A stretch of 64,000 nt of DNA from a virus (lineage: Duplodnaviria > Heunggongvirae > Uroviricota > Caudoviricetes), in IMG/VR virus record IMGVR_UViG_3300020171_000017, positions 48,685 to 112,684 of that record; one strand, given 5' to 3'. Position 1 is the first letter of the stretch; each line of letters begins with the position of its first letter. The position numbers were made by a program, and so were the translations under genes. The notes under the pieces were generated by a model. It saw nothing but the letters and a program-made list of their open reading frames with translations, ran no database searches and was not told where the DNA came from. Positions 2,455 through 42,651 of the stretch are shown here, one piece after another.

Positions 2455-3192
2455 ATGGCAGACACCAAATTGATTGAAAAGAAAAAGGTTGATATTTATT
2501 CGTTGTACAAAAAAGAAAAAACTATACACATTGAAGATAATGAAGGCAACTATATCGATGTGTTGCTAGTGAAAATGACACAAGGCCAACGTATCGACGC
2601 ACTTGATTCTTATAGTGTGTATATTGAAAAAGAACGCGTAAAGTTGCGAGAGCAGGAAGAGAAAACTCACCAGCTTGCTCTCGCTACTGAACGATATAAA
2701 CCAGAAGATATAATTGATAGTTTAATCGCTTTTGAACTCGCGCAATATAATGAGATCATAGATTTATACCCTAGTTTAGAAGGAAAGACAGAAGAAGAAA
2801 AAACTAAAATTATCGAAGAAGAAACCGCTAAGTTCAAAAATACCAGGAAAGAAGAATTAACGAAAAAACCGAAAGAAGAAGTAATAAAACTTTTTCTTGA
2901 TATGTCGCTAGAAGCGCAGGCGTTGTTAAATTCAGTACGAATATTGAATTACGCGAGTCTGGTTTATATGTGCCATGACGCTGAAACTCGAAAGCCGATT
3001 TTTGGGTCTATAGACGATATAAACAAGGTTTTAGATAAAACTGTTATTGAACAGTTGATTGATGAAATGACCGAATTTCGTAAATTCGAAACGCAGAAAA
3101 GAATCAGAGAAATAGCGTCTAAAGATCCAGGTTTTTTGGAAGTTGGGGTGTCGCCAAAAAGCTCAATAGACTCCCCTGTTATAGTGAGCTAG
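2455..3192 (+). CDS. tail assembly chaperone (gpG-like)
   Basis: acidic 245-aa protein directly upstream of tape measure; slippery T_TTT_TTG near 3' end with -1 frame open downstream. Confidence 0.55.
   Translation: MADTKLIEKKKVDIYSLYKKEKTIHIEDNEGNYIDVLLVKMTQGQRIDALDSYSVYIEKERVKLREQEEKTHQLALATERYKPEDIIDSLIAFELAQYNEIIDLYPSLEGKTEEEKTKIIEEETAKFKNTRKEELTKKPKEEVIKLFLDMSLEAQALLNSVRILNYASLVYMCHDAETRKPIFGSIDDINKVLDKTVIEQLIDEMTEFRKFETQKRIREIASKDPGFLEVGVSPKSSIDSPVIVS
3132..3138 (+). promoter_or_regulatory. candidate -1 programmed ribosomal frameshift slippery heptamer (T TTT TTG)
   Basis: in-frame codons ggT TTT TTG of chaperone ORF; -1 frame has no stop from 3132 to 3479. Confidence 0.45.
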
Positions 3193-21274: not shown

Positions 21275-21345
21275 TGGCTATAATTGGAATTAAACCAATA
21301 CTCGAAACTTATGAAACTTTTGTTCTGTCGTTAAACTATATAGCT
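21275..21345 (-). tRNA. tRNA-like gene, weak anticodon stem (loop could read CAU or UCA)
   Basis: acceptor AGCTATA/TATAGCC, perfect T-arm ATTGG-TTTAATT-CCAAT; anticodon stem poorly paired. Confidence 0.3.
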
Positions 21346-21357
21346 GTTGTTGTTATT

Positions 21358-21429
21358 AGCAGAAGTGGGATTCGAACTCACAATAACTTGTTTCTAAAAC
21401 AAGTTCCTTTTCCAATTAGGATATTCTGC
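21358..21429 (-). tRNA. tRNA with anticodon UAG (Leu-decoding) but short variable arm
   Basis: acceptor GCAGAAT, anticodon stem CTTGT/ACAAG, loop TTTAGAA, T-loop TTCGAAT. Confidence 0.5.
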
Positions 21430-21448
21430 TGTTAAATTATAACTTAAA

Positions 21449-21523
21449 CGTGCTCGGAAAGAATTGAACTTTCACATTCCTATTTTAGAAGAATAGTGGC
21501 TTATCCATTTTGCCTACGAGCAC
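21449..21523 (-). tRNA. tRNA-Arg (UCU)
   Basis: acceptor GTGCTCG/CGAGCAC perfect, anticodon stem CTATT/AATAG, loop CTTCTAA, T-arm GAAAG-TTCAATT-CTTTC. Confidence 0.65.
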
Positions 21524-21528
21524 AAATC

Positions 21529-21888
21529 TTAGCAATTAACAAAATCCTCGTCGTCGCTCTCATCTTCCACTAAATCGCGCAATTCGTTTAACGTCGCTCT
21601 TAAAGCTTCTTTATTGCCATAGGCTAACATTCTATCTTCAGCTATATCGTGATCGCACTCTTCTTTACATTCAGGGCATATCGTACCTGGCACTTCTTTG
21701 AATGCTACAAAACTTGCAACGAAACATACATTGTTTTTGTTCGCTTCAGTGTATCTTTCGATTGCGTCAATTATATCTTGTAGTTCTTTACTGATTACCT
21801 CATCGTTCTCGTCTGGCATATTGTCTATCATTTTTTGTTCTCCTAAATATGTTTTGGGTAACAGTTTACCCTGATACTTTTTGCTCAA
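21529..21888 (-). CDS. hypothetical acidic protein
   Basis: 119 aa, CPECKEECDHD motif. Confidence 0.4.
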   Translation of the reverse strand: MSKKYQGKLLPKTYLGEQKMIDNMPDENDEVISKELQDIIDAIERYTEANKNNVCFVASFVAFKEVPGTICPECKEECDHDIAEDRMLAYGNKEALRATLNELRDLVEDESDDEDFVNC

Positions 21889-21938
21889 GTTTATGCGTTT
21901 TGCATATAACCACGACCATAAGTTTTAAATTTTTATTT

Positions 21939-22130
21939 TTAATATACTAAAATTTTCAAAATCCATTCACCGTAAGGATATTCTGGATTAGTTATCCATT
22001 TTTCCTTATATTGTTCTATGAATTTAACTTCATAAGTATGCATCTTTCTAATACTCTGTTTAGCTTTTTCTAATGTCCTATAAACTGTTTTAAGATGCCA
22101 CCCCTCCTCAAAAACTACATATACATACAT
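21939..22130 (-). CDS. hypothetical protein (63 aa)
   Basis: ORF in minus-strand block. Confidence 0.3.
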   Translation of the reverse strand: MYVYVVFEEGWHLKTVYRTLEKAKQSIRKMHTYEVKFIEQYKEKWITNPEYPYGEWILKILVY

Positions 22131-22372
22131 TTAAAATCCTTTCTTTTTAATGCCCAATTAGAATATCAGACTCCAATTATTTTTCGTTGTAGGCGAAGTG
22201 CCATAACCAATTAGGCGAACAGGGCAAAATTTCACGTGCAGAGAGTTAAACTTTGCAACTTAATTAATTTATAGAGCCATTTTTGCAATGATCAATTGCT
22301 ATTCACAACTCAAAAATAAAAAAAGTCAGGCACTCAATTGGTATGCATCCCTTATGCCTACGCTAAATTAAA

Positions 22373-22772
22373 GTGGATCTGGTGGGAATCGAACCCACGT
22401 CCTAAAATATCCAAATATAAAACCCTACATACATAGCTTATTATTTTCACCTTTACATTAATGATTGAATAAGCACGATCATCAATGTGCAAATCTTTAT
22501 TTGATTACTTCTATCGCAAAGATTAATCAATAGAATTAGCATAATAAATGACCTTCTTTAGCTCTTATGCCGAACTGAAGAAGGTGCTTTACCTAAATTT
22601 AGGCAAAGACTGGGTCCCCAGCAAAGATAGGTGCTACAATATCTTCAGCCGAAGCTAATAACCGCTGATTTTCGTCTGCGTTTATTTTTGTGCAAGATTT
22701 TTTACACAGCCAACTTGCGTCTGTGATATGCGTTTTATATTCGACCTATTTCAGTCTAACCCGATCAGACCC
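22373..22772 (-). ncRNA. ssrA: tmRNA-like (ssrA-like) gene, tentative
   Basis: ~400 nt without ORF; 5' GGGTCTG pairs with 3' CAGATCC adjacent to T-arm GTGGG-TTCGATT-CCCAC; internal ...AAAAAUAAAC GCA GAC GAA AAU... resembles canonical resume region, open tag frame ADENQRLL...VFA-UAA. Confidence 0.45.
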
Positions 22773-22801
22773 AAATATATTCAAAGAACAGTGTTAAATA
22801 G

Positions 22802-22888
22802 CTGTGGCGGTTGGATTCGGACCAACAATGAGAATTTCTTCTAATAGCTTAACAGGCTATCCCCTGCAACCAATTCGGGTACACCACA
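22802..22888 (-). tRNA. type-II-like tRNA (87 nt, long variable arm), identity unresolved (anticodon loop CUGUUAA)
   Basis: acceptor TGTGGTG/CGCCACA, anticodon stem ATAGC/GCTAT, variable-arm hairpin AGAA-GAAA-TTCT, T-arm GTTGG-TCCGAAT-CCAAC. Confidence 0.4.
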
Positions 22889-22893
22889 ATATC

Positions 22894-23124
22894 TTATTTT
22901 TTTCTATCTTCCATTAATTCACCAATAAACAATATTATATCACTTAAACAATCTTTATTCCAAATAGTATCATAATTTGGAAAGAATGCGTAACATCTCC
23001 AATTCACGTACCATTTTATAATCCCTAACCGATCACTGTGCATCTTCGACACCACTTCATAAACATTTGTTTTTTCTTTCTTCTCTAAAAGATTAAATGT
23101 TAAGTATTTTGATTGCATATTCAT
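22894..23124 (-). CDS. hypothetical protein (76 aa)
   Basis: small ORF, minus-strand operon. Confidence 0.3.
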   Translation of the reverse strand: MNMQSKYLTFNLLEKKEKTNVYEVVSKMHSDRLGIIKWYVNWRCYAFFPNYDTIWNKDCLSDIILFIGELMEDRKK

Positions 23125-23345
23125 CTCCGTTTAATATCAGAATAATAATAAATATCAATAAGCATAGCAACTACTGTGTAATATAATTCTTCTTGTGTGT
23201 TTATATCTAATTTTTTAAAAATATGTTTGAGGTTCTCTCTAGTATATTTTGGGATAGCACACAAATTGTCTATGGCATCAATATCTTCATATTTAATTTT
23301 TAATAATTTATGCACATAATTCCAATCTTTGAATTTTTTCTTCAT
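23121..23345 (-). CDS. hypothetical protein (74 aa)
   Basis: start/stop overlap with downstream gene. Confidence 0.3.
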   Translation of the reverse strand: MKKKFKDWNYVHKLLKIKYEDIDAIDNLCAIPKYTRENLKHIFKKLDINTQEELYYTVVAMLIDIYYYSDIKRR

Positions 23346-23359
23346 ATATCTTTTATTCT

Positions 23360-23436
23360 TGGTGCCACGACTCAGTGTCGAGCTGAGATCTCTGCGCCTT
23401 CAACGCAGCACTTTTGACCAGTTAAGTTATCGTGGC
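23360..23436 (-). tRNA. tRNA-Phe (GAA), CCA encoded
   Basis: acceptor GCCACGA/TCGTGGC-A-CCA, D-stem ACTT/AAGT, anticodon stem CTGCG/CGCAG loop TTGAAGG, T-stem CTCAG/CTGAG. Confidence 0.7.
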
Positions 23437-23715
23437 GTACATCTTATCAATTACCAACTGCATCTTCTGCCTCACAGAAGCGTTATCAGTTACTAAAACT
23501 ATTTCTTCAGGCAGATATTGTTGGTTTTGCTCTAACCAACAAAGTATATCATAACCTGTATATTCTTTGCCGTTATAGAAATCAGCCAAATCATGATCTA
23601 AGAGAAGGAGATTATATGGTTGTGATTGCAACGCCAATACGCCCTCAATATAAGACCTTGCTGTATGGGTCGCTACTTCTAAATTTCTTTTGTCATCAAT
23701 TAATAGTATGTTCAT
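23422..23715 (-). CDS. stand-alone response-regulator receiver (CheY-like) domain protein
   Basis: MNILLIDDKRN...LLLLDHDL...GYDIL pattern typical of REC domains; 97 aa. Confidence 0.45.
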   Translation of the reverse strand: MNILLIDDKRNLEVATHTARSYIEGVLALQSQPYNLLLLDHDLADFYNGKEYTGYDILCWLEQNQQYLPEEIVLVTDNASVRQKMQLVIDKMYATIT

Positions 23716-23745
23716 TTTTTATACAACTCCTTGTATGGTTTTAAA

Positions 23746-23817
23746 AGCCCCAATCGGGATTTGAACCCGAACCTTCTCGGTGGAAACGAGATATGCTGCC
23801 AAAAACACTTTTGGGGC
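23746..23817 (-). tRNA. tRNA-Gly (UCC)
   Basis: acceptor GCCCCAA/TTGGGGC, anticodon stem TCTCG/CGAGA loop TTTCCAC, T-loop TTCAAAT. Confidence 0.7.
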
Positions 23818-23833
23818 GTTGTTATTCTTTTAA

Positions 23834-23905
23834 AGCCCCCTGACAGATGTGCGCTGTCCTGTCAAGTTTACAAAACTTGTCCTTCGCTGTCTAAGGTTAG
23901 GGGGC
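23834..23905 (-). tRNA. tRNA-Thr (UGU)
   Basis: acceptor GCCCCCT/AGGGGGC perfect, anticodon stem CAAGT/ACTTG loop TTTGTAA, T-stem GACAG/CTGTC. Confidence 0.65.
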
Positions 23906-23924
23906 AGTCTTAACTTAATATCAG

Positions 23925-23995
23925 AGCCAAAGACGAGAATTAAACTCGTGCCTGAACATTGGCAATGTTCGATACTATCACTATACGACTTTGGC
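23925..23995 (-). tRNA. tRNA-Gly (GCC)
   Basis: acceptor GCCAAAG/CTTTGGC, anticodon stem GAACA/TGTTC loop TTGCCAA, T-arm ACGAG-TTTAATT-CTCGT. Confidence 0.6.
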
Positions 23996-24140
23996 ATATA
24001 TTCAGTCGAGCAGTACGATTCACACGTAACTTTTTGCACTACGGCAAACTTGCTGTATCTATTACCCTAATGCCTTGAGCCAATTCCCGGGATGCTCGGC
24101 ACCTACTCTTATAGATTTACAACACTGCTCGGATTTTCAG

Positions 24141-24214
24141 TGGAGCTGGAGCGAGTTGAACGCTCACTTATATTGATTGCAAAGCAATTGCCTTCCCAAT
24201 TAGGCAACAGCCCC
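24141..24214 (-). tRNA. tRNA-Ala (UGC), probable
   Basis: acceptor GGGGCTG/CAGCTCC (G3-U70 wobble), D-arm GCCT-AATTGGGA-AGGC, loop TTTGCAA, T-arm GAGCG-TTCAACT-CGCTC. Confidence 0.5.
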
Positions 24215-24218
24215 ATAT

Positions 24219-24692
24219 TCATTCATTTTCAATTATATGATACACAACTTCTTTACCTAATTTTCTAGCTTCTTTCGCTGTCCAACATGCACCAGATTTC
24301 ATATGATCATTAGTATGACAATGGTAACATTTATTAAATCGCATGCCATTATATCCTTTAGGATATTTATCAACTAAAATTACATGTAATATGTCTGAAT
24401 CTTTAGCAATATCTAAATTACGTTGTTTAAAACCATATTCAGCGTCCCAAATATTTTGTTTTGGGATTTTAAGATCTAATAAAAATCCAAGCCGCTTCGA
24501 TTCTTCTTCCCCATAAATGTCTATACCACCTACAGGTGAATGACCTGAAACAAAATAAATAGGTTCTATTTTTTTATTTTTTAAACAATTTAAAGAAAAA
24601 TCAATTAAAATACTTGTGAGTAATTCTTTAGCTTCTATTTTACTTTTTTCAGTGAATTTATCCTCACCATGACCTATTATGCCTATTTTCAT
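24219..24692 (-). CDS. Rossmann-fold protein (SLOG/LOG/DprA-like?), function unknown
   Basis: MKIGIIGHGED...YFVSGHSPVGGIDIYGEE pattern. Confidence 0.35.
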   Translation of the reverse strand: MKIGIIGHGEDKFTEKSKIEAKELLTSILIDFSLNCLKNKKIEPIYFVSGHSPVGGIDIYGEEESKRLGFLLDLKIPKQNIWDAEYGFKQRNLDIAKDSDILHVILVDKYPKGYNGMRFNKCYHCHTNDHMKSGACWTAKEARKLGKEVVYHIIENE

Positions 24693-24706
24693 AGTTCCTT
24701 TCTTAG

Positions 24707-24789
24707 TGCGTGCTGATGGATTTAAACCACCGAATCCCGAAGGAACCCGCTCTACAGGCGAGTGCGATTAGTCTCTCTGCCAAGCACGC
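24707..24789 (-). tRNA. tRNA-Tyr (GUA), type II
   Basis: acceptor GCGTGCT/AGCACGC, anticodon loop CTGTAGA, long variable arm TCC-TTCG-GGA, T-stem GGTGG/CCATC. Confidence 0.65.
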
Positions 24790-24798
24790 ATAATTTTT

Positions 24799-24872
24799 GG
24801 GTGGATAACGAGAAATCGAACTCGCTCCTAAAGAGCCACAATCTTCCGTGCATCCTCTACACTATATCCACC
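24799..24872 (-). tRNA. tRNA-His (GUG) with encoded G-1
   Basis: G-1 opposite discriminator C73, acceptor GTGGATA/TATCCAC, anticodon stem GAAGA/TCTTT loop TTGTGGC; T-arm slightly atypical. Confidence 0.6.
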
Positions 24873-24877
24873 ATATT

Positions 24878-25396
24878 TTATTCATTCTCAATCCCCAAGT
24901 ATTTGCACCACAATTCGTGAATAAATCCTAACTTCATTTTTAAGATCATCTTAAACCCATGTGGTTTAGTTGGTATTTTTAACAACTTCATACCTGCTTC
25001 TTTTGGTGTTCTATTATCTTTAATACCATTACAAATATTACATGCCGTCGTACAATTTTCCCAAGTTGTTTTCCCGCCCTGAGATTCTGGCAAAACATGG
25101 TCTATAGTCAATTTTCTAGGCTCGAATTTCACGCCGCAATACGAACAAGTAAAATTATCGCGAATATGTATATTATGTTTTGAGTAAGAAACAAAAGCTA
25201 TTTTTTCAAACGCTACTCGCACATATCGTTTCAATCTTATGACTGCAGGAATTTTCATAGTAAGTGAAACACTATGTACCTCCTGCTCATAAGAGGACTC
25301 AAGAATAGCTTTTTCTAAATAAATTAAATTAATAGATGATTGCCAACTACAAAACCCAAGGAACGTAAAATCTTGATTCAAAATTAAGACACGCAC
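24878..25396 (-). CDS. HNH endonuclease
   Basis: CSYCGVKFEPRKLTIDHVLPESQGGKTTWENCTTACNICNGIKDNR = HNH/McrA-type motif. Confidence 0.65.
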   Translation of the reverse strand: MRVLILNQDFTFLGFCSWQSSINLIYLEKAILESSYEQEVHSVSLTMKIPAVIRLKRYVRVAFEKIAFVSYSKHNIHIRDNFTCSYCGVKFEPRKLTIDHVLPESQGGKTTWENCTTACNICNGIKDNRTPKEAGMKLLKIPTKPHGFKMILKMKLGFIHELWCKYLGIENE

Positions 25397-25399
25397 TTC

Positions 25400-26155
25400 T
25401 TACCCTTTCCTTTCTTTCCAAAACTCTTCTAATAACTCTATTTGTAATTTATTTATCGCTTCTTGATCAGCACCATATTGTAAATCTGATTGCACATATG
25501 CCAAATCAACTAATTTCTCTATCTCTTCAGCTTTATTCAATACCCAAGTCAAATCATATTTACCTAATTTCACATCCCGTACTAAATTATGCTGCGGTAA
25601 TGGAAATGTTAAAGCCTTTTCAGTTAATAATTGGAGACATTCTAACAAAAGCCTAATCAAATGGGATCCGAACTTAACATCATATCCAAACTTTAATGCT
25701 AATTCTTTTCTACCTGTCATATTATCACGTTTAATTTCTAACTTTTCTCTTTGCGAATACGAGTATCCTTTAAAAGTATGATACGCTTTTTTAGACAAAA
25801 ACAAATGCCTATTCTCAATCAATTTATTAGCAAACTTATCTCTATATAATACGCAATTTTCTGGTACATAAAGGAACTCTATAACATTGGGATTATTTGC
25901 CATTGCTAATGGTATAAATTTCGTTAACGCATAGACCATATAATCAGTATCGCCTTTTTGATTACGAACCGATTTAGAAATCTTCTCAGACAACTCAACT
26001 TGTTCTACATTTTTAATACCTAGTACATAGTCTTTATCAGGTATGAATATGCCGCCTAAATCTTCGTCTGAAGTTTCTGTTCTCGTCCCATATAAATTCG
26101 AGCCGATTCTGATTTTATATATCGTATTTCGTAACGCCATATCTCGTTCTTGCAT
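25400..26155 (-). CDS. Pol-beta-superfamily nucleotidyltransferase
   Basis: IGSNLYGTRTETSDEDLGGIF = GS-x10-SD-x-D NTase signature followed by ~150-aa helical domain. Confidence 0.55.
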   Translation of the reverse strand: MQERDMALRNTIYKIRIGSNLYGTRTETSDEDLGGIFIPDKDYVLGIKNVEQVELSEKISKSVRNQKGDTDYMVYALTKFIPLAMANNPNVIEFLYVPENCVLYRDKFANKLIENRHLFLSKKAYHTFKGYSYSQREKLEIKRDNMTGRKELALKFGYDVKFGSHLIRLLLECLQLLTEKALTFPLPQHNLVRDVKLGKYDLTWVLNKAEEIEKLVDLAYVQSDLQYGADQEAINKLQIELLEEFWKERKG

Positions 26156-26172
26156 GTTTATAATCCTTTTAG

Positions 26173-26258
26173 TTAGGCGAGGCAGAGTCGAACTGCCGTT
26201 TCCACCCCTACAAGTTGCAACTTTACGGGTGACGACTTACCGTTAGTCGATCAGCCTA
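26173..26258 (-). tRNA. tRNA-like gene, type-II size, unusual expanded anticodon region
   Basis: T-arm GGCAG-TTCGACT-CTGCC, acceptor AGGC(T)GA/TCGCCT with one bulge, D-arm CGAC-TAACGGTAA-GTCG; stem CACCC/GGGTG encloses 19 nt containing palindrome AAGTTGCAACTT. Confidence 0.4.
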
Positions 26259-26266
26259 AATTTTTA

Positions 26267-26341
26267 TCGGCACAGGAAGACTCGAACTTCCACTATTCAT
26301 CGCCCCAAACGATGCGGTCTACCAATTTGACCAATGTGCCG
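26267..26341 (-). tRNA. tRNA-Pro (UGG)
   Basis: C1-G72 acceptor CGGCACA/TGTGCCG, D-arm GGTC-AAATTGGTA-GACC, anticodon stem CATCG/CGATG loop TTTGGGG, T-arm GGAAG-TTCGAGT-CTTCC. Confidence 0.7.
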
Positions 26342-26686
26342 TTATATCTTTTTATTTCTTCCTAATTTTTTATCAATTTCTAACCTATCAAAACCGTAAT
26401 ATTTATCACCCTTAATAAATGAAGTAGAATTCGATAGATAGACAAGAGAAGATAATAAACTACGTAATTCACAAAATAAACCTTCACTTATATCAAGTTT
26501 TTTACCAATATCAGATTTATCTAAAAATATCTTTAAAGTATTTACAATCACTCTAAATCTTTCTTCAGTTTTAATAGGCAGTACAAATGCCTCATCTATA
26601 GCGTAACCTAGTGCATGAATCTCTTCTGCCTCATCTTTATCGAGTTTCTCACTATCAATATGAATTAATCTAACCTCATCTTTCAT
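26342..26686 (-). CDS. hypothetical protein (114 aa)
   Basis: ORF ends one base from tRNA-Pro; minus-strand operon. Confidence 0.4.
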   Translation of the reverse strand: MKDEVRLIHIDSEKLDKDEAEEIHALGYAIDEAFVLPIKTEERFRVIVNTLKIFLDKSDIGKKLDISEGLFCELRSLLSSLVYLSNSTSFIKGDKYYGFDRLEIDKKLGRNKKI

Positions 26687-26710
26687 TTCTTCATCTCCAT
26701 TTAAAGTAGT

Positions 26711-28288
26711 TCATAATTTATCTTTATTCTGTTCTCTAAATTCTTTCAATTCCTTATCCCGCCTTTCTTCGATTTCTTTAGGAAAGCCACGATTTAAACA
26801 TCTTGGGCAAGCAGCTTCTTTTGTTTTGTTTTTAGGGTCTTGCGTAGTTTGAATATAACCACTACATATTATAACTTCATCCGCAATATAATTTTTGCAC
26901 AATTTTCTAGAAACATAATAACTACACTTTTCCCAATCTTCTTTTTTCATTTTTTCATCTCCATTTTTTTCTTCTACCCACTTCAGATACACTTCTTCAT
27001 TCTCACCTAACTTCAGTTCACCATTAATCACTGCATTTAGCACCATCTCTTTAATCTCACCTACCTGCCTTACCTGACCGAGATTAAAATATCGCATAAT
27101 GGCGTTACCATTTAAGGGCGATTTTGGTGATTCTTTAAAGTTTCGTTGTTCTTCAATACGGCGTTTGAGATCCATGAGAGAATCTAAATGCTTTTTGATT
27201 GAAACGGGATTGTGAGAAGTTATGTCACTTTCACTCAATTGCAATAATTTTCCACAATATTCTCCAGTTTCAAAAATAAAACGCCTAACAGCACTATCTG
27301 AAAAAGATTCGGTGTACGTATTAACACGCATATGATTTTTCACCAGGTATGTGATATCTTTTATCATTTTAGTTGGTAGACCTAATCGCTGTAAGATTGA
27401 GTAAGTCATCCGAGATCCGATTTCATCGTGATCATAAAAATGTATTTTACCATTCTCATTAGAGAAGGTACATTGCTTTCCAATATCGTGAAATAATGCA
27501 CTAAAACGAAGTACTAAATCTTTTGGAGTATTCTTTACAACATCAATTGTATGGAGTAAAGCATCTTTATGGTGAAACTCACTTTCTTGTTTTATAGATT
27601 TTAATGCTACTAATTCAGGTATAAAATAATTTATAAGCCGATACTCAAATAAATCATTGAGAGCAAGATCGACATTATCGGTCATTAATATTTTGTTTAC
27701 TTCGTCTAAAATCCTTTCTTTTGGCAAAATTAACAAACGTTTTGCGCATGATTTTAATGCCATTTTCACTTCTTCACTATATTCAAAACCTAACTTCGCT
27801 CGAAAGCGCACGGCGCGGATTAATCTTAACGGATCGTCAGCGAAAGATTTTCCTGCCTGTATAGGTGTAGAAATTATTTTATTCTTAAGGTGCTCTACGC
27901 CCCCAAATAAATCCTTGATTTCCCTCTTACTATCTAAGCACAAACAATTAATTGTGAAATCCCTTCTATGCAGATCATCCTCTATTGTTTGTCCCCACTC
28001 GACTACGGGGTTCCTATTACTTCGTTGATAAGATATATCCCGCCTATATGTCGTGCACTCCACCTTATATCCATCCACTATCGCACCTACAGTCCCGAAC
28101 GCTATGCCTACGGTGTAAGTTTTATACCCCGCCTTCTGCAATATCTCTAAAGTAACTTCAGGCACGCAGGAAACCGCGAAATCTAAATCTTGAGTTTCGA
28201 GACCTAAAAGTTGATCCCTGCACGCACCGCCGACTAAATATATAGAGTGACCATTCTTACTAAATAACTCAAATATTTTATTTTTCAT
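26711..28288 (-). CDS. cca: tRNA nucleotidyltransferase (CCA-adding enzyme) with HD phosphohydrolase domain
   Basis: GGACRDQLLGLETQDLDFAV head motif; HD motif HHKDALLHT...FSALFHDIGK; 525 aa. Confidence 0.8.
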   Translation of the reverse strand: MKNKIFELFSKNGHSIYLVGGACRDQLLGLETQDLDFAVSCVPEVTLEILQKAGYKTYTVGIAFGTVGAIVDGYKVECTTYRRDISYQRSNRNPVVEWGQTIEDDLHRRDFTINCLCLDSKREIKDLFGGVEHLKNKIISTPIQAGKSFADDPLRLIRAVRFRAKLGFEYSEEVKMALKSCAKRLLILPKERILDEVNKILMTDNVDLALNDLFEYRLINYFIPELVALKSIKQESEFHHKDALLHTIDVVKNTPKDLVLRFSALFHDIGKQCTFSNENGKIHFYDHDEIGSRMTYSILQRLGLPTKMIKDITYLVKNHMRVNTYTESFSDSAVRRFIFETGEYCGKLLQLSESDITSHNPVSIKKHLDSLMDLKRRIEEQRNFKESPKSPLNGNAIMRYFNLGQVRQVGEIKEMVLNAVINGELKLGENEEVYLKWVEEKNGDEKMKKEDWEKCSYYVSRKLCKNYIADEVIICSGYIQTTQDPKNKTKEAACPRCLNRGFPKEIEERRDKELKEFREQNKDKL

Positions 28289-28290
28289 TT

Positions 28291-28716
28291 TTAGAATAAA
28301 AGATTTTGTTCTAACGCTAAATTATATATGTCTTGCATAGGAATTCGACAAAAATTAGGTATTTCTCTAAATTCGTACATAGAAGAATAGATTAACTGAA
28401 TAGCTTCAAATAACCCCACATTTCTCGCAATTAAAGCTAAAAGAGCTATATGTGGACTTCTAGTCACACAACATTGACAATGTATAAATATATCATCAGT
28501 CCCTTTTAACTTTTCATATAATTCATATAAAGGAATATTCATTTTATATAAACTATCACCATCTTTGTAATCTATTTCAATATCGTTATTTCTAAGCATA
28601 CTACATCTTTGATCTGGGTAATCATTTCGCCATATGTGGATTGTTCGCATAATTGAATTACAACATGATTCTTTGTCCCCTAACCAAATATTTTTATTTA
28701 GATAAATTTTTTTCAT
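28291..28716 (-). CDS. cysteine phosphatase (dual-specificity/PTP-like P-loop)
   Basis: IHCQCCVTRSP matches HC-x5-R-S/T catalytic loop; 141 aa. Confidence 0.5.
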   Translation of the reverse strand: MKKIYLNKNIWLGDKESCCNSIMRTIHIWRNDYPDQRCSMLRNNDIEIDYKDGDSLYKMNIPLYELYEKLKGTDDIFIHCQCCVTRSPHIALLALIARNVGLFEAIQLIYSSMYEFREIPNFCRIPMQDIYNLALEQNLLF

Positions 28717-28988
28717 TTTAAAAATAGCTCATGCATTTCTATCTTCCAATCTTTAATTTCATCGAAACTATCAAAACATATTGGATACATTCTGCTATCA
28801 CCTTCTTTTTTTATGCACCAGAAACCTTTGTTCCAACCGCTTTTAATTATCATTTTAGGCGAAAGCTGAAAGTCTGTCTTTCTTACTGATTCAGACACAA
28901 TTAATGTAGTGCCTACTAATTGAAAGTCTGCTGGTAAATCTTTAATTTTAATAGTTTTCATTTCGGGACCTTTCTTTTTGGCTACCAC
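28713..28988 (-). CDS. hypothetical protein (91 aa)
   Basis: overlapping stop/start with phosphatase gene. Confidence 0.35.
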   Translation of the reverse strand: MVAKKKGPEMKTIKIKDLPADFQLVGTTLIVSESVRKTDFQLSPKMIIKSGWNKGFWCIKKEGDSRMYPICFDSFDEIKDWKIEMHELFLK

Positions 28989-29053
28989 ATAAGGATCCGA
29001 TCCTTAATCTTCAGCTTCAGAGGCTGACGAATTACCAGTTATTCGATGTGGTA
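28982..29053 (-). tRNA. tRNA-Gln (CUG)
   Basis: U1-A72 + discriminator G73 (Gln identity), anticodon stem TCAGC/GCTGA loop CTCTGAA, T-stem TAAGG/CCTTA. Confidence 0.7.
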
Positions 29054-29056
29054 ATA

Positions 29057-29251
29057 TTATACAATATAATGCACAAAAGCTTCTATTTTGCCACAATCAC
29101 ATCGATGCATAATTTCATATTGCACATCAAAAAGATATTCATCTAATTTTGCAATAATCTTTTCTAAATGAGAGTGGTTTTTAGCTTTAATCCAACATCC
29201 TGAACGTTCTGTCATTTTTAATCTCCAATCATAGCTACGGGAGATGAGCAC
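29057..29251 (-). CDS. hypothetical protein (64 aa, Cys/His-containing)
   Basis: small ORF between tRNAs. Confidence 0.3.
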   Translation of the reverse strand: MLISRSYDWRLKMTERSGCWIKAKNHSHLEKIIAKLDEYLFDVQYEIMHRCDCGKIEAFVHYIV

Positions 29252-29306
29252 GATTCATCATTAACAGCTTCAAAGGCTGCTTGCCTACCTATTAGCAGAT
29301 CCCGTA
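29235..29306 (-). tRNA. tRNA-Gln (UUG)
   Basis: U1-A72, G73, anticodon stem GCAGC/GCTGT loop CTTTGAA, T-stem GATGA/TCATC (non-canonical T-loop ATCGTGC). Confidence 0.6.
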
Positions 29307-29312
29307 ATTCTG

Positions 29313-29385
29313 TGGGTGCAGAAAGCCTTAAACTTTCAATCTATCGGGTAAGAACCAATTGCTTTATCAATTAAGCTATGCACCC
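29313..29385 (-). tRNA. tRNA-Lys (CUU)
   Basis: acceptor GGGTGCA/TGCACCC, D-arm GCTT-AATTGATA-AAGC, anticodon loop TTCTTAC, T-arm GAAAG-TTTAAGG-CTTTC. Confidence 0.6.
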
Positions 29386-29398
29386 GTTATTTCCTTAA

Positions 29399-29469
29399 TG
29401 AGCGTACCAGAATTCGAATCTGGATAGACACATTAAAAGTGTGTTAATCTGCCCTTGATTTATACGCCC
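29399..29469 (-). tRNA. tRNA-Lys (UUU)
   Basis: acceptor GGGCGTA/TACGCTC, anticodon stem ACACA/TGTGT loop CTTTTAA, T-arm CCAGA-TTCGAAT-TCTGG. Confidence 0.7.
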
Positions 29470-29481
29470 GTTAACTATTAG

Positions 29482-29555
29482 AGGCGATAACTGGATTCGG
29501 ACCAGTGATTGTACTGTTTTGCAGACAGTTCGATTAGCCACTCTCGCACACCGCC
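29482..29555 (-). tRNA. tRNA-Cys (GCA)
   Basis: acceptor GGCGGTG/TATCGCC (two G-U), discriminator U73, anticodon stem ACTGT/ACAGT loop CTGCAAA, T-arm ACTGG-TCCGAAT-CCAGT. Confidence 0.6.
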
Positions 29556-29562
29556 ATAACCT

Positions 29563-29901
29563 TCAATACAACGCCCAACCGCTGCCTTTTTCTTTTCTTG
29601 GTTTACTGCCTTTACCGCCAGATTTTGTGTTATATGTATCGTTATTTTCTATAAAATCTCGGTTAACCAATTCTTGCTCTTTATTCTCCATATCTATTTT
29701 GTTGTTATAGATAAACAAGATCTCTTTCTTAAAGTTATGTATGCCATAATATTTATGGGCATTTTTCATTGTGATGCCAGAACCTTTGTAATCGTCATTT
29801 ACATCTTCGGTCGCATGCTTACCGATGTATATCTTGCTGTTAATCAGATTTGTGATCTTATAGACTATGTAGTATGTCATAATATTTTTAAGCACAGGCA
29901 C
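29563..29901 (-). CDS. GIY-YIG homing endonuclease (stand-alone catalytic domain)
   Basis: YIVYKITNLINSKIYIGKH ... R ... E ... N motifs of GIY-YIG; 112 aa; embedded in tRNA array. Confidence 0.7.
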   Translation of the reverse strand: MPVLKNIMTYYIVYKITNLINSKIYIGKHATEDVNDDYKGSGITMKNAHKYYGIHNFKKEILFIYNNKIDMENKEQELVNRDFIENNDTYNTKSGGKGSKPRKEKGSGWALY

Positions 29902-29946
29902 CAGGACTTTAACCTAGGCCAACTGTTCCAATATTCTTCAACATTA

Positions 29947-30021
29947 GCGCCTCCTGTCGAATTTAAATCGACGATATCTTGATCGACAATCAAGTGCATT
30001 GAATCGCTATGCTAAGGAGGC
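29947..30021 (-). tRNA. tRNA-Asp (GUC)
   Basis: acceptor GCCTCCT/AGGAGGC, G73, D-arm GCAT/ATGC, anticodon stem CTTGA/TCAAG loop TTGTCGA, T-stem GTCGA/TCGAC. Confidence 0.7.
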
Positions 30022-30031
30022 AATTTTCAAG

Positions 30032-30102
30032 TGACGCTACGGGGAATTGGACCCCGACATTCTGGTCGAAAGCCAGATATACTGCCTTTATATGATAGCG
30101 CC
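30032..30102 (-). tRNA. tRNA-Glu (UUC)
   Basis: acceptor GGCGCTA/TAGCGTC, anticodon stem TCTGG/CCAGA loop CTTTCGA, T-stem CGGGG/CCCCG. Confidence 0.65.
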
Positions 30103-30349
30103 ATAAAAACAAAAAAACCGATTCAGTTTTAGTAGTTCGTAGCTTTTAATCTATGCTGCTGATTGCTACTTACTACTTTGTTGAGTCGGTATAATTCGCA
30201 ATCAGCACAGATAGTTTAGGCATAATGCCTGTCGAACATAAAAAGGCTCTATGCCAAAACTTGCGGTTTTGGTTCGGCGTTTCTTGTATCTGTTCTGGCG
30301 TTTTATGTTGTAACATTTTCTATGCTTTCGTTACGATGTGAAATTTTAG

Positions 30350-30421
30350 TAGCGGGTTACGAAATCGAATCGTATTAAAGTTGGTTATGAGCCAACCAAG
30401 ATTCCAAACCTTCCACCCGCA
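30350..30421 (-). tRNA. tRNA-Met (CAU) with unpaired 1:72 (U.U)
   Basis: acceptor (T)GCGGGT/ACCCGC(T), D-stem AAGG/TCTT, anticodon stem GTTGG/CCAAC loop CTCATAA, T-arm TACGA-TTCGATT-TCGTA. Confidence 0.55.
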
Positions 30422-37830: not shown

Positions 37831-38373
37831 TTATCCTACTAAACTTCTCTCCCAACGTATTTTATTCGCCTTGGATTGCGGTAAATTACGATCTCTATTG
37901 TTCCAATCTACAAAAGCAGTTTCATTACCGATATGCCAACCACTTGCTTTATAAATCGTACCAGTATGTACTTCTGTATCTTGATATGAAATTAAACGTG
38001 TTATTTCTGGCATCTTCTTCTTAATTAGTTTAATCATAACACTTATCATTCTACTAGCAGTATTCTTAGGGCATTTCTCAGATATAGCCAATCTTCTTAA
38101 CTCTAATATCTTTTTGCCATTTTTAAATCTGTTTTGCGCTACAGGACTTGACCAAATACCTACAGCTAAACATATATTGTCGAAATACGCACCATAACAA
38201 ACATAATGCGTATTTCTAGTAACATTAGAACAATCTATTATGGGTAATCTTGAGTGCCATAAAGCATTCATACGGCAAGCGTTTTGTGGTCTTATCTCTC
38301 GCACTATCATTTCAAGCGGAGAGGTCGGAATCGAACCGCCATTAATATTTTGGAATAAATCTTGTTCTACCAT
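37831..38373 (-). CDS. hypothetical protein (180 aa)
   Basis: ORF; no family recognised. Confidence 0.4.
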   Translation of the reverse strand: MVEQDLFQNINGGSIPTSPLEMIVREIRPQNACRMNALWHSRLPIIDCSNVTRNTHYVCYGAYFDNICLAVGIWSSPVAQNRFKNGKKILELRRLAISEKCPKNTASRMISVMIKLIKKKMPEITRLISYQDTEVHTGTIYKASGWHIGNETAFVDWNNRDRNLPQSKANKIRWERSLVG

Positions 38374-38390
38374 TAAACTATCTCCGCAAT

Positions 38391-38660
38391 CTATATTTCC
38401 AATATCCTTTTACAAATCTCGCTATCAATCTTTTTATTTTCTTTAAACCTTATTAACAATAGTTGCAATATACGATCCCAATCTTTATAGCAAGAACTAC
38501 AAACGCCGAATTGTATATTCTTAATGACAATCGAATAGAAACCTAATGTTAGATCATCAGTAGCTGTAAGTATCATTTCTTGTTCTAGTTTAGAATCACA
38601 AATATAGCAGATCATTTCTGTGTATCTCCGTAGTAAGTTGCTATTGCCAAAGCAGACCAC
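38391..38660 (-). CDS. Cys-rich zinc-finger protein (89 aa)
   Basis: CYICDS...CSSCYKDW. Confidence 0.35.
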   Translation of the reverse strand: MVCFGNSNLLRRYTEMICYICDSKLEQEMILTATDDLTLGFYSIVIKNIQFGVCSSCYKDWDRILQLLLIRFKENKKIDSEICKRILEI

Positions 38661-39070
38661 ATATCTTTTGAAATTCCATATAACATACCAGGATTTTTTT
38701 TTGTGCCTGGTTCACCGAAACGATCAACAAGCACTTGCCTGATATTAGAATCTTTTGCTTTCATACTATTGCAATGATGAATTTTCACATCTTTACGATA
38801 TACTAAAACTGGATTTTTATCTTGATACGCATGTAAGAATTTACCGATCCACAAAAGAGTTTCAAATACACTTTTACCAACCGCCATGCCGTAACAAGCA
38901 ATCATCTCGACGGGCATTAAGTAAGTTGCTACCTTGTCTTTACCTAATATTTCAATTTTTTTCAACAATTCGGCATTAGGCACAATTCCTTTATCTAAAA
39001 GTAAATTATTCTTATGATCCCAAATTACAAACGCACTTTGTTCAGATCCAGGGTCGATTGCGAAAATCAT
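38612..39070 (-). CDS. RuvC-like Holliday junction resolvase
   Basis: N-terminus MIFAIDPGSEQSAFVIW (RuvC motif I), 152 aa. Confidence 0.6.
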   Translation of the reverse strand: MIFAIDPGSEQSAFVIWDHKNNLLLDKGIVPNAELLKKIEILGKDKVATYLMPVEMIACYGMAVGKSVFETLLWIGKFLHAYQDKNPVLVYRKDVKIHHCNSMKAKDSNIRQVLVDRFGEPGTKKNPGMLYGISKDMWSALAIATYYGDTQK

Positions 39071-39073
39071 AGA

Positions 39074-39250
39074 TTATTCGTTACATTTCCTACAAAAATA
39101 TTCCTCACTTAACTTACTCACATCATTATCATTTAATTCATCTTCATCAGCAAAATGCCAATCTTTATTATTTTCATTCTTTACCACGATTAACCTCGAT
39201 ATTAGTCCAGCACTTATAACTTTACCACAATCAAAACATGTCCGCCACAT
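39074..39250 (-). CDS. small zinc-ribbon protein; start placed at internal Met
   Basis: tracked ORF's first 42 codons read through repeat R1 (39279-39377); MWRTCFDCGK...CRKCNE. Confidence 0.3.
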   Translation of the reverse strand: MWRTCFDCGKVISAGLISRLIVVKNENNKDWHFADEDELNDNDVSKLSEEYFCRKCNE

Positions 39251-39278
39251 ATTATGCGCCTTTCTTTGCCTTAAAATG

Positions 39279-39377
39279 AACAACAGGTCATTGCCTGTTG
39301 TGCCACACCTTACCGGACCATACCAAACCTCACAGGGCCCTACCACACCACACCTTACCCCACCCAACCTCACCATA
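39279..39377. repeat. intergenic repeat copy 1: 9-bp hairpin + ~70-nt CA-rich tract
   Basis: AACAACAGG-tcattg-CCTGTTGTG then caccttaccggaccataccaaacctcacagggccctaccacaccacaccttaccccacccaacctcacca. Confidence 0.6.
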
Positions 39378-39382
39378 ATTAT

Positions 39383-39586
39383 TTATTTAGTATTTTTTTC
39401 TTCTTTAATTCTAATTTTTAACCAGACAAGAAAGGCATCAATTATTTCTCTTACTGTCGTCGGTGTTTTATCTATTGAATTAAAAGTAAAACCTTTCTCT
39501 ATATAGTTGTCTCCATACCTATTCTTTAAAATTTCTTGCATAATAAAATTACATGCATTTTCTAAATCTTTAGAGTCTAATTTCAT
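39383..39586 (-). CDS. hypothetical protein (67 aa)
   Basis: small ORF between repeat copies. Confidence 0.35.
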   Translation of the reverse strand: MKLDSKDLENACNFIMQEILKNRYGDNYIEKGFTFNSIDKTPTTVREIIDAFLVWLKIRIKEEKNTK

Positions 39587-39777
39587 TTTCTTCTCGCTAT
39601 AGTCGCTGGCTCTTCTCCATTGACATGCGAATTAGAAATTCTACATTCGTTACAAATACGGTTTTTTATCCTATCATTAGATAGAAATTTCTTTCTGCAT
39701 TTTAAACAAGGTATTTTTATATAACTAGTATCATTTCGACGACCTGGCACAATATTTCTCCTCTTTTAATTAAATTA

Positions 39778-39888
39778 ACAACAAGTCATCGCTTGTTGTG
39801 CCATACCCCACTACACAGGACCTCACCCCACCGCACCTCACCATACCTGACCGAACTTTAATTAACCATACCTCACCACATTCTTTAA
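39778..39888. repeat. intergenic repeat copy 2: hairpin + CA-rich tract
   Basis: AACAACAAG-tcatcg-CTTGTTGTG then ccataccccactacacaggacctcaccccaccgcacctcaccatacctgaccg...cctcaccac. Confidence 0.6.
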
Positions 39889-39906
39889 ATAATTAAGAAT
39901 TAAACC

Positions 39907-40005
39907 AACAACAAGTCATTGATTGTTGTGCCTTACCGCACCAAACCGCACCGTGCACGACCTAACCGAACCTCACCACACCATACCCCACCGCACCAAA
40001 CCTTA
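39907..40005. repeat. intergenic repeat copy 3: hairpin + CA-rich tract
   Basis: AACAACAAG-tcattga-TTGTTGTG then ccttaccgcaccaaaccgcaccgtgcacgacctaaccgaacctcaccacaccataccccaccgcaccaaacc. Confidence 0.6.
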
Positions 40006-40007
40006 AT

Positions 40008-40514
40008 TTATTCCACAACTTTAAATCTCCCAAACTTCGGTCTGTAATCACCAATCCCCTTAACTTTTCCCGCCTCACTAACAATTTCCAATAAAGTTTC
40101 TTTAGACATTCTATCTGGATCAAAAGTTAAGGTGAATTCTAACTCCCAAGTATTCCATCTTGGTCTATGTTTTATGATCCCGTTTCTTTGTATTCTTGCA
40201 AACCGAGAATCAATTTCATCATATTTTTTATTTAAAGGTATCTTCTCTTCCTCACAAAAAGTAGTTGCAACAACTGTCTCTTTTAAGGTGCGTTTCCCTT
40301 TGGCCTTAAAACTTTTTGCTGCTTCACGGATACTAGATTCTATCCAAGTAGACGGTGCGTAATACCCTATTTTCTCATCGTAGTATACTGCATCAATTAC
40401 ATCATCTTCTTTATTATATATATCTACTTTCTTTTTAGATTTATCTCCATCCATATTATATTTATTCATTAATAATGGAGACACTCCTTTGATCTTTACT
40501 TTAATACTTTCCAT
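40008..40514 (-). CDS. hypothetical protein (168 aa)
   Basis: ORF. Confidence 0.4.
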   Translation of the reverse strand: MESIKVKIKGVSPLLMNKYNMDGDKSKKKVDIYNKEDDVIDAVYYDEKIGYYAPSTWIESSIREAAKSFKAKGKRTLKETVVATTFCEEEKIPLNKKYDEIDSRFARIQRNGIIKHRPRWNTWELEFTLTFDPDRMSKETLLEIVSEAGKVKGIGDYRPKFGRFKVVE

Positions 40515-40867
40515 AAAAAACCTCCAATCAATCTGCGTAATTGATGTTTCGATAAACCATCAACTACATTGTTCATCATATGTAAACATCTACATTTATT
40601 TAGTTCTAACAGCTTAAACTTCCGTGCATCATTCTTATGCTGTTTCTCTTCAAAATGTTGTCCACCTCCTGGTTCAAAGACACATATCGGTTTATCATTT
40701 TTAAATACAACTAAATCAGCAGAACCGTAAGTCCAAATATGTCTTAACCCACTATTCTCTGGTTTAGGAAAAAGATCTCGCAAAGCAACTTCTTTTTGCG
40801 TTACAAATTTTGACCAGGTTTTATTAATGTACTTCTCTAATTGTATCGTCTCTTCAGTTATTAACAT
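40496..40867 (-). CDS. hypothetical protein (123 aa)
   Basis: ORF. Confidence 0.4.
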   Translation of the reverse strand: MLITEETIQLEKYINKTWSKFVTQKEVALRDLFPKPENSGLRHIWTYGSADLVVFKNDKPICVFEPGGGQHFEEKQHKNDARKFKLLELNKCRCLHMMNNVVDGLSKHQLRRLIGGFLWKVLK

Positions 40868-41064
40868 TTTTCTTTTGGCTTATCAAAATATGCAGTTTTA
40901 CACTTAGGACAAAGACGTACCTCTGTTTTTCTTGGTATCCAGGTATGATTACATCGTGCACATTTTAATAAATTTATTTTTATTTTCATTGTTTATTTAA
41001 CTCCTATGATATTACTTATAATATATCTTATATATCTATATTTGTCAAGAGAAAATAGCCTACG

Positions 41065-41406
41065 CTAATCGTCACTTGAAAAAAGTTCATCCCCAATTTC
41101 AAATCCCATTTCTGCCACCTTACCGATAACTTCATCTTCACGTATTAAACGGTATTCGCTGCTTAATACTAGACCTGCTCTCATATTAAAAATTATTTTT
41201 TCACCAATTTTAATTTCTGTTGCATCATAAATTGATTTACCATCATCAGTTTTTTTATCTGATAAATAACCTGGACCAACAGCAACAATCTCACCTATAC
41301 TAGCACTACCTTGAAGACTAGTCCCTTGTGGCAACGCAATACTTTTATAATTTCTCACTTTTGAAACTTTTACTAGCAATCGATTTCCCGTCGGTGCAAT
41401 TTTCAT
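41065..41406 (-). CDS. groES: co-chaperonin GroES-like
   Basis: MKIAPTGNRLLVKV...IGEIVAVGPG pattern of Hsp10. Confidence 0.6.
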   Translation of the reverse strand: MKIAPTGNRLLVKVSKVRNYKSIALPQGTSLQGSASIGEIVAVGPGYLSDKKTDDGKSIYDATEIKIGEKIIFNMRAGLVLSSEYRLIREDEVIGKVAEMGFEIGDELFSSDD

Positions 41407-41631
41407 TTTTTATTCTCCTTTTTTTGTATTATTGTTGTTTAACTTTAATCCCGCCCTTTTTAATCAAATCATCACGTTTTATTTCTTCGGCTGACTTCTT
41501 CGTCCATTTACCATCTTTTCCTTTATGCCAACCAGCACCCTCGGCGGCTGACCATGCAGTAGCAGAACATATATATCGGTACTGAAACACGCACATTAAT
41601 CATAAAAAAAACGACAAGGAAACTCACACAT

Positions 41632-42651
41632 TTATGTGTGCAGAGGAATTGTCGTCCTCCAGTAATTATAAGAAAGAAATACTAAATCCTTCTTATCTAT
41701 GTTTTGAGCTAATCGTTCTCCTGTCTCTAAATTATGCACACTTAATCTATCTTTACTACTGCCACCGACATAACAAATACCGTATTTAGGATGTGTTACA
41801 AGGCTGCCGCGTTTTAATCCAAGTGACATTGTGCTGCCATAATCTTTTCTTATGCCGCCTTTTGAGAAATTAAAACGATGAAGTTGCCTCCTGTGAAACT
41901 GAATTGGAATTAATCTTGTAATTTCTTTGTTTTCTGGAACAGTACCACCTCGCACTGAACTCCAAGCCAATGACCAAGAGTCCACATTGTGCGCGGAAAA
42001 AATTTCGGCTGATTTATTACCTGTCTTTATAAGTCCTAACTCCTGTCTTATTTGGTATGTATCGTAACCAGATTTTAATTCTACTTTTGCAATTTTTTCA
42101 AGTTCTTTATAGAACCACTTCTTACCGACTTCGAGTGGAGAAAAAGATGTATTCCATCTTTTAGCGTTCTTAAATGTAGGTGCTTTTATATCTTCTACTA
42201 CAAATGTCTTAATAGGAAACAACTTCGCGAGAATGACTGCAATCCTTAACTTCGCCTGCCAACGTGCTTTTGTACTTGGTGCTAAAAAGGTTGTTTGAGA
42301 TCTATTGTTTTTATTCTTCCTGCATGGAGTTGTCCTATATCTCCGTACTTTTCTCGCGTTTCTCCTTGTTTCTACCGCTTCTTTTACCCATGAAACAGAA
42401 TTACTTAAAATGTTTAAGTAAGTATGTAATTCTGATTTCACCGTGAACGCTTCTCTCTTGCTGCCAGGATCGATTCCTACCACAATGTCCTGCGTTACAC
42501 CATCAGTACGCTGGATTAACTTGATATAAAAAATCCCAGCCTTGAAACGGCGTTTTGCTCTGTTCTTTTTTATCAGTTCGTTCGCGCGATAATTATTAGT
42601 CGGCATTAATGGTTTCCCTGTCGCGCTGATCACTGGTACAGACTTCTGCAT
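41632..42651 (-). CDS. isrB: IsrB-like RNA-guided nickase homolog (HNH-less IscB; PLMP domain + split RuvC)
   Basis: N-terminal GKPLMPT (PLMP motif), RuvC-I VVGIDPGSKREAF, Arg-rich bridge-helix-like RRNARKVRRYR, ~340 aa, no HNH. Confidence 0.6.
   Translation of the reverse strand: MQKSVPVISATGKPLMPTNNYRANELIKKNRAKRRFKAGIFYIKLIQRTDGVTQDIVVGIDPGSKREAFTVKSELHTYLNILSNSVSWVKEAVETRRNARKVRRYRTTPCRKNKNNRSQTTFLAPSTKARWQAKLRIAVILAKLFPIKTFVVEDIKAPTFKNAKRWNTSFSPLEVGKKWFYKELEKIAKVELKSGYDTYQIRQELGLIKTGNKSAEIFSAHNVDSWSLAWSSVRGGTVPENKEITRLIPIQFHRRQLHRFNFSKGGIRKDYGSTMSLGLKRGSLVTHPKYGICYVGGSSKDRLSVHNLETGERLAQNIDKKDLVFLSYNYWRTTIPLHT

Follow-up and report, generated by a model that had tools for sequence, protein, structure and literature searches.

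What is the intergenic element that occurs three times between positions 39279 and 40005 of this 64,000-nt stretch of phage DNA (the window throughout), and what could it do for its carrier? Initial annotation of the window described three copies (39279–39377, 39778–39888 and 39907–40005), each with a near-identical hairpin, and proposed small RNA genes, origin iterons, recombination arm sites or transcript-processing sites. Reading of the sequence bears out the copies and their hairpins, and small RNA genes are the best supported of these proposals; iterons, arm sites and processing sites find no support. Each copy is a vrRNA gene, and all three belong to a VIPR (Viral Interference Programmable Repeat) locus. 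This identification rests on direct tests of four features: the neighbouring protein, the grammar of the RNA, its tail, and the linkage of protein and repeat. The mechanism that we propose for the locus is inferred from homology with the VIPR systems of SUSP1 and P. fulva. Taken as a whole, a VIPR locus with an accessory–vipr operon, three vrRNA genes and this homology-derived mechanism is very probably the right explanation.

VIPR was first described in 2026 (bioRxiv 10.64898/2026.04.26.720920,.720927). It combines a minimal RAMP protein, Vipr, with vrRNAs of 9–16 YNNGG units that end in a constant structured tail. One protomer covers each unit and buries GGY, NN pairs with double-stranded DNA at NNx sites with a 1-nt skip, and binding silences transcription, the natural targets being competing phages, satellites and prophages (10.64898/2026.04.26.720920,.720927). 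VIPR represents a new mode of RNA-based DNA recognition, in which two of five guide bases are read and one of three target bases is skipped, and CRISPR effector complexes have been proposed to descend from it. Systems of this kind were already described in the 2026 preprints; new in the window are a plain hairpin tail and a conserved Vsr-like partner gene.

The source looks like a large uncultured phage without a close relative among GenBank phages, against which megablast of 38000–42000 gave no match. The G+C content is 33.6% across the 64-kb window, which carries 19 tRNA genes and a tmRNA gene; 18 of the tRNA genes and the tmRNA gene (tag ADENQRLLASAEDIVAPIFAGDPVFA) are clustered at 21275–30421 on the minus strand, an arrangement typical of very large phages. 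A borderline Rfam tRNA match at 38316–38387 (30.0 bits against a threshold of 29) is not called by ARAGORN. The window also contains a sliding clamp gene, identified by reading the sequence, and genes for GroES-like, Mom-like and RuvC-like resolvase proteins. All genes surrounding the three copies lie on the minus strand.

Repeat tracts and tails

The near-identical hairpins, at 39280–39301, 39778–39799 and 39908–39929 on the plus strand, each adjoin a C/A-rich, G-poor tract of 75–80 nt. This tract had been characterized as conserved in character, with recurring CCTCACC and CCGCACC motifs, a description that misses its exact form: the tract is a strict pentanucleotide repeat, (CCNNA)15–16 on the plus strand and (YNNGG)15–16 on the minus strand, with perfect YNNGG in 40 of the 46 units and four of the six degenerate ones in vrRNA-B. 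The information content of the five unit positions is 1.74, 0.18, 0.06, 1.31 and 1.85 bits, and Tandem Repeats Finder returns periods of 5, 10, 15 and 20 in the tracts. The pattern (ACCNN)4ACC, with at most one mismatch, has 18 matches in the 64-kb window, all within the three tracts, and none in 100 dinucleotide-preserving shuffles; a register scan of the whole window found no further tract. The triplicated element is confirmed as real and far beyond chance. The order of its parts had been read on the plus strand, as hairpin followed by CA tract, which is the wrong orientation; on the minus strand, which is the sense strand for the nearby genes, the functional order is gene, repeat tract, 3′ hairpin. 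Two features that identify the system had been overlooked, namely its 5-nt period and the protein partner encoded next to it.

With 15, 16 and 15 units, the tracts fit the published vrRNA grammar of 9–16 units, and a direct reading of the intergenic regions of SUSP1 reveals this grammar there too. The vrRNA-A tract (39931–40005, minus strand) starts 2 nt past the vipr stop codon and comprises 15 YNNGG units, in one of which TG replaces GG. Its NN code reads AA TT GC GG AT GT GA TC TA CG AC GC TT GC AA, from which the NNx-coded site AAnTTnGCnGGnATnGTnGAnTCnTAnCGnACnGCnTTnGCnAA is derived, and its 3′ tail (39908–39930, minus strand) is a hairpin with a 7–8 bp stem followed by a U-rich stretch. 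The vrRNA-B tract (39801–39880, minus strand) has 16 in-register units, four of them degenerate (TTAAT, TAAAG, TCCTG and TGTAG), and its tail hairpin (39778–39800, minus strand) is followed by a Shine–Dalgarno sequence and the GTG start of ORF 39583–39750. The vrRNA-C tract (39303–39377, minus strand) begins a few nucleotides past the stop codon of ORF 39383–39586 and has 15 units, one of them degenerate. In its tail hairpin (39280–39302, minus strand), a G-C pair replaces the A-U pair of copies A and B, a compensatory change inside the window itself. Rfam revealed nothing relevant, either in a gathering-threshold scan of the whole window or in a permissive scan of 39000–40300.

When folded as whole units, the copies are no more stable than shuffles on either strand (z from +0.28 to −2.48), the hairpin alone being consistent. 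The initial annotation had also pointed to a G-quadruplex propensity and to a resemblance to Shine–Dalgarno or anti-Shine–Dalgarno sequences. Neither accounts for the sequence, and both ideas were dropped owing to the folding result and once the 5-nt register and the link to the protein had been seen.

Several open reading frames touch the element. The 55-aa zinc-ribbon-like and 67-aa ORFs that lie between vrRNA-B and vrRNA-C (39383–39750, minus strand) gave no informative family matches and are absent beside vipr in relatives L124–L129, where other genes follow vipr; they are probably passengers outside the system. Public gene calls include a 100-aa protein (39074–39376, minus strand) that reads through vrRNA-C, as does the corresponding call in L122 (4139–4441), and the first ~40 codons of this ORF are the vrRNA-C tract and hairpin. 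One copy had indeed been noted to run into the start of an ORF. This is correct for the mechanical ORF 39074–39376 only, since the real gene is likely to be a 58-aa zinc-ribbon protein that starts at ATG 39250, downstream of the hairpin. Two further entries in the mechanical list, 39962–40123 (minus strand) and 39276–39506 (plus strand), overlap vrRNA-A and vrRNA-C and are spurious repeat artefacts.

Vipr and its linkage to the tracts

The gene immediately upstream of vrRNA-A (vipr, 40008–40514, minus strand) encodes a 168-aa minimal RAMP protein, the predicted vrRNA-binding subunit. One solved structure, deposited as "SUSP1 Vipr protein" (PDB 36pp), was matched by phmmer (E 2.9e-19), and BLASTP against Vipr of Escherichia phage SUSP1 gave 31% identity over the full length (E 9e-28); the product also matches phrog_4652. 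In an AF2 model (pLDDT 88.6), the closest PDB matches found by Foldseek are Csm3/Cas7 subunits of type III and type VII CRISPR complexes (E ~1e-5, probability 1.0). Judged by sequence and model, the 168-aa protein is a Vipr homologue with a predicted Cas7/Csm3-like RAMP fold.

The cryo-EM structure of SUSP1 Vipr bound to vrRNA has H17 and D177 holding G1, R138 and W178 holding G2, and R179 holding Y3 (10.64898/2026.04.26.720927; PDB 36pp). R138, D177 and R179 are kept in the window protein as R117, D156 and R158, and W178 is replaced by Y157, which is still aromatic. Among 27 homologues, R117 and R158 are invariant, while D156 and Y157 are nearly so. The position of H17 falls at a 12-residue indel in the alignment; the N-terminal register would give N17.

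Protein and repeat are associated far beyond the window. A DNA-side scan of IMG/VR with the bare pattern (ACCNN)6ACC matched at least 120 viral contigs, many of which have 2–18 tracts whose lengths change in 5-nt steps and which are separated by short, locus-specific punctuation. When the window ORFs were compared by BLASTP with all ORFs of the pattern loci, a single recurrent neighbour emerged, the product of 40008–40514. Starting from the DNA, 37 of the loci found by the pattern have two or more long tracts, and 32 of these gave a match to the Vipr profile; 168 of 172 tracts share the sense strand of vipr, and 146 of 172 are located downstream of it. Starting from the protein, 80 IMG/VR loci were retrieved, of which 75 have a GGY tract on the sense strand no more than 1.5 kb away and one has an antisense tract. 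Linkage in both directions indicates that vipr and the repeat tract form one module. It follows from the scan that the bare DNA pattern suffices to recover VIPR loci from viral metagenomes without a protein search.

Long arrays of 7–18 period-5 tracts occur in the IMG/VR contigs L098 (1566–2725, minus strand), L010 (4602–5047) and L020 (1234–2421, minus strand), with nothing but short, constant punctuation between the tracts (AACTGCC; CCCATTAGCC; and an AT-rich block of 24 nt). The VIPR preprint names a "staggered" form and further kinds of array, to which these may belong.

Close relatives and the accessory gene

The same layout is found in nine loci whose Vipr proteins are 52–73% identical to that of the window. 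When units of this close clade are aligned from the tail, identity is 0.91 at the Y, G and G positions and 0.25, the random value, at NN. The tail hairpin (ACARC...GYTGT) is kept after all three window tracts and after those of the nine relatives, with compensatory changes in six of eight stem pairs and 99% of cells paired. No shuffle attains the covariation score of the real alignment, and slid registers score well below it; the tail helix is therefore real. Lack of conservation in relatives had been named in the initial annotation as a refutation of its reading, and the comparison does not refute it: the grammar and the hairpin prove to be conserved, though the NN letters do not. More distant clades use other tails. 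The close relative L128 (= L146), on a 160-kb contig with a 56% identical Vipr, lacks a clean tract: at 3020–3090, after vipr, it has only a degraded GGT/TGT period-5 remnant that overlaps the start of the nuclease-like ORF and may be a decayed or divergent vrRNA.

A second gene accompanies vipr in this clade. The candidate vipr-accessory gene of the window (40496–40867, minus strand) overlaps the vipr start by 19 nt and encodes 123 aa with a predicted Vsr/DUF559-like PD-(D/E)xK nuclease fold; its product has no similarity to SUSP1 vap1. Members of this family (122–159 aa, Vsr-like fold) adjoin vipr in all 13 distinct close-clade loci, upstream in some and downstream in others, and this change of side points to functional linkage with vipr rather than mere synteny.

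It is possible, though less likely than not, that the clade represents a phage-borne VIPR with an obligate Vsr/DUF559-type nuclease, in which the filament directs cutting or nicking of rival-phage DNA in addition to silencing. Predicted nucleases are restricted to VIPR types III and V, which are regarded as host-defence types, in the preprints (10.64898/2026.04.26.720920,.720927). Given that restriction, a phage-encoded, nuclease-coupled form with a plain hairpin tail would either contradict this division of types or make up a subtype not yet classified. Should the Vsr-like partner prove to be an effector, the locus would join targeting by VIPR with cleavage of DNA, and would do so within a phage.

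Two observations concern the neighbourhood of the module. A 339-aa ORF (41632–42651, minus strand), 1.1 kb from it, has an RRXRR domain (PF14239, E 3.9e-28), a PLMP-like N-terminus and a DPGSK RuvC-type motif, and it looks like a relative of IsrB/IscB-type RNA-guided nucleases. In relatives L127 (991–1950) and L227 (1–958), a Gad2 (anti-Gabija, PF26128) gene lies directly upstream of the nuclease-like and vipr pair, an adjacency which suggests that, in these phages, the module is part of a region concerned with counter-defence or conflict.

Target search

The guides were converted into NNx patterns and the matches judged by the published criterion, an NN match of 80% or more. Within the 64-kb window, the best NNx matches cover 19–22 of 30–32 positions (best 22/30), equal to the best of shuffled guides. 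Self-targets are likewise reported to be absent in the preprints (10.64898/2026.04.26.720920,.720927). Scanning ~1.3 Mb of other loci with the NNx code gave chance-level scores. For larger collections exact seeds of 8–9 units were used, with IMG/VR scanned six times and the JGI metagenomes and GTDB genomes once each; as only exact seeds of this length were used, sensitivity was low and far below that of the published nhmmer search. Each seed scan listed 2–23 matches, which is roughly the number expected by chance, and none extends to 80% or more among the matches listed.

The best full-length NN scores among the matches listed are 25/32 (L144) and 23/30 (L240/L242, L269 and L277). L144 was rejected as a target because its contig has 62% GC, which is implausible for a phage of 34% GC. 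The best sub-threshold candidate target of vrRNA-C is L269 (3271–3314, minus strand, of IMGVR_UViG_3300006256_000326; 100 kb, 26% GC), which scores 23/30 with units 3–11 perfect and lies within an ORF, the skipped bases falling at third codon positions; the match is not significant after correction for 10 seed hits. A peptide shared among vrRNA-B seed hits, SQI(D/E)AGEP, was set aside, as it arises from unrelated frames in high-GC contigs.

Alternative explanations

Four other readings were weighed against the VIPR assignment. The RNA-binding protein TRAP of B. subtilis binds a period-5 triplet repeat, and a similar triplet repeat is present here. A TRAP-like multimer bound to a (GGUNN)n leader could set termination at the hairpin and thereby regulate the small ORFs after copies B and C; the hairpins at 39301–39280 and 39799–39778 are flagged as terminator-like with U-rich tails, and ORFs bearing Shine–Dalgarno sequences begin right after them. 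However, the triplet is GGY and not (G/U)AG, and the neighbouring protein is a Vipr/RAMP homologue rather than a TRAP homologue; no TRAP family match was found in the ten ORFs scanned at 35.3–42.7 kb. In relatives, moreover, the downstream genes differ or long tract arrays occur without intervening genes, and the NN letters are random, as would be expected of guides but not of a conserved leader. Attenuation of this kind is therefore very improbable.

Tracts of ~70 nt that are C-rich and G-poor resemble rut sites, and the plus-strand RNA would consist of a hairpin and a fully unstructured C-rich tail. A plus-strand small RNA of this form could act as a Rho-loading, rut-like site or as a protein sponge that stops antisense transcription. 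Tandem short repeats beside a binding-protein gene are, for their part, typical of iteron and centromere loci, and here such repeats adjoin the gene of a putative binding protein, as they would if the element were an origin, a partition centromere or a packaging site bound by that protein as double-stranded DNA. Strand polarity speaks against both readings, since the GGY strand of 168 of 172 tracts in other loci is the vipr sense strand, a polarity that is nearly absolute, and most of these tracts follow directly after the vipr stop codon. No plus-strand promoter stands out (nine promoter-like sites, where 11.2 are expected), rut sites are not known to have a strict 5-nt register, and the sequenced vrRNAs of SUSP1 are the GGY strand (10.64898/2026.04.26.720920,.720927). 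The variable NN positions together with a covarying hairpin point to an RNA, and the homologous SUSP1 protein was solved bound to this RNA (10.64898/2026.04.26.720927). We consider the plus-strand RNA extremely improbable, and grant a DNA-level repeat an equally slight chance. The TRAP-like, Rho/rut-like and iteron/centromere ideas, along with that of a primase site, were all demoted once the homology of the protein had been found.

A different question is whether a true VIPR locus is decaying or idle, having kept its protein and grammar while its guides lack targets. The absence of a target at 80% NN match among the matches listed and the degeneracy of six of the 46 units, most of it in vrRNA-B, would be consistent with such a state. 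The ORFs are nevertheless intact and the contact residues conserved, and the target search was of low sensitivity; internal degeneracy is, moreover, frequent in functional vrRNAs according to the preprints (10.64898/2026.04.26.720920,.720927). Decay is thus unlikely, though less so than the three readings above.

Proposed mechanism

For the preferred reading, a VIPR locus, we propose the following scheme. A two-gene minus-strand operon (accessory gene and vipr) would be followed on the same strand by three vrRNA genes of ~100 nt; we infer their transcription, ends and processing at 39280–40005. One Vipr protomer would bind each YNNGG unit, and successive protomers would build a helical filament that buries each GGY and presents the NN dinucleotides. 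These would pair with double-stranded DNA at NNxNNx... sites, skipping one base per unit, usually at the wobble position of a codon, and the three vrRNAs would each specify a different 44–47 bp site. The resulting R-loop triplex would keep a competing phage or mobile element from being transcribed. As a speculation from its fold, the Vsr-like partner may add nicking or cutting of DNA at the bound site.

Comparison with known systems

The tracts resemble the B. subtilis trp leader bound by TRAP, (G/U)AG-NN, in having a conserved triplet with a 2-nt spacer, more than 10 repeats and one subunit per repeat. They differ from it in the triplet, which is GGY, in the unrelated fold of the protein and in spacers that bear information; TRAP has no DNA target.

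Likeness to the backbone of Class 1 CRISPR–Cas complexes (Cas7/Csm3 on crRNA) extends to the RAMP fold with its thumb and glycine-rich loop, to a predicted one subunit per fixed length of guide, to periodic gaps in pairing and to a constant handle on a variable guide. The period is 5 nt in VIPR, with three bases buried and two read, whereas it is 6 nt with one base flipped in Class 1 CRISPR. In contrast to CRISPR, the target would be read with a 1-nt skip, no identical direct repeats separate unique spacers, and there are no cas1/cas2, Cas5/Cas6 or large subunit genes; no cas family was detected in the nine other ORFs scanned at ~35.3–42.7 kb, where vipr is the sole RAMP gene. A CRISPR array was rejected because the shared blocks are the hairpin tails only, with a pentanucleotide tract between them, and because copy C lies 400 nt off behind two ORFs. 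The initial view that the copies are neither CRISPR arrays nor promoters nor ordinary terminators has held up.

The closest counterparts are the type II VIPR systems of SUSP1 and the P. fulva prophage. They share with the window a small RAMP Vipr, GGY/NN vrRNAs of ~100 nt with a constant structured 3′ end, intergenic vrRNA genes beside vipr on the same strand, several guides per locus, carriage by a phage and a lack of self-targeting, checked here within the 64-kb window. The SUSP1 tail is a pseudoknot, whereas that of the window is a simple hairpin of 8 bp, and the window vrRNAs, at 15–16 units, stand at the top of the published 9–16 range. Unlike in SUSP1, all three vrRNAs lie downstream of vipr, one of them set apart by two small ORFs. 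The partner gene of the window is upstream of vipr, overlaps it and has a predicted Vsr-like fold, whereas SUSP1 vap1 is a predicted DNA binder, and the phage itself is low in GC and rich in tRNA genes, unlike the SUSP1 case. To the known VIPR systems the window thus adds a compact example, with three natural guides of 15–16 units, a simpler hairpin handle and a conserved partner with a predicted nuclease fold.
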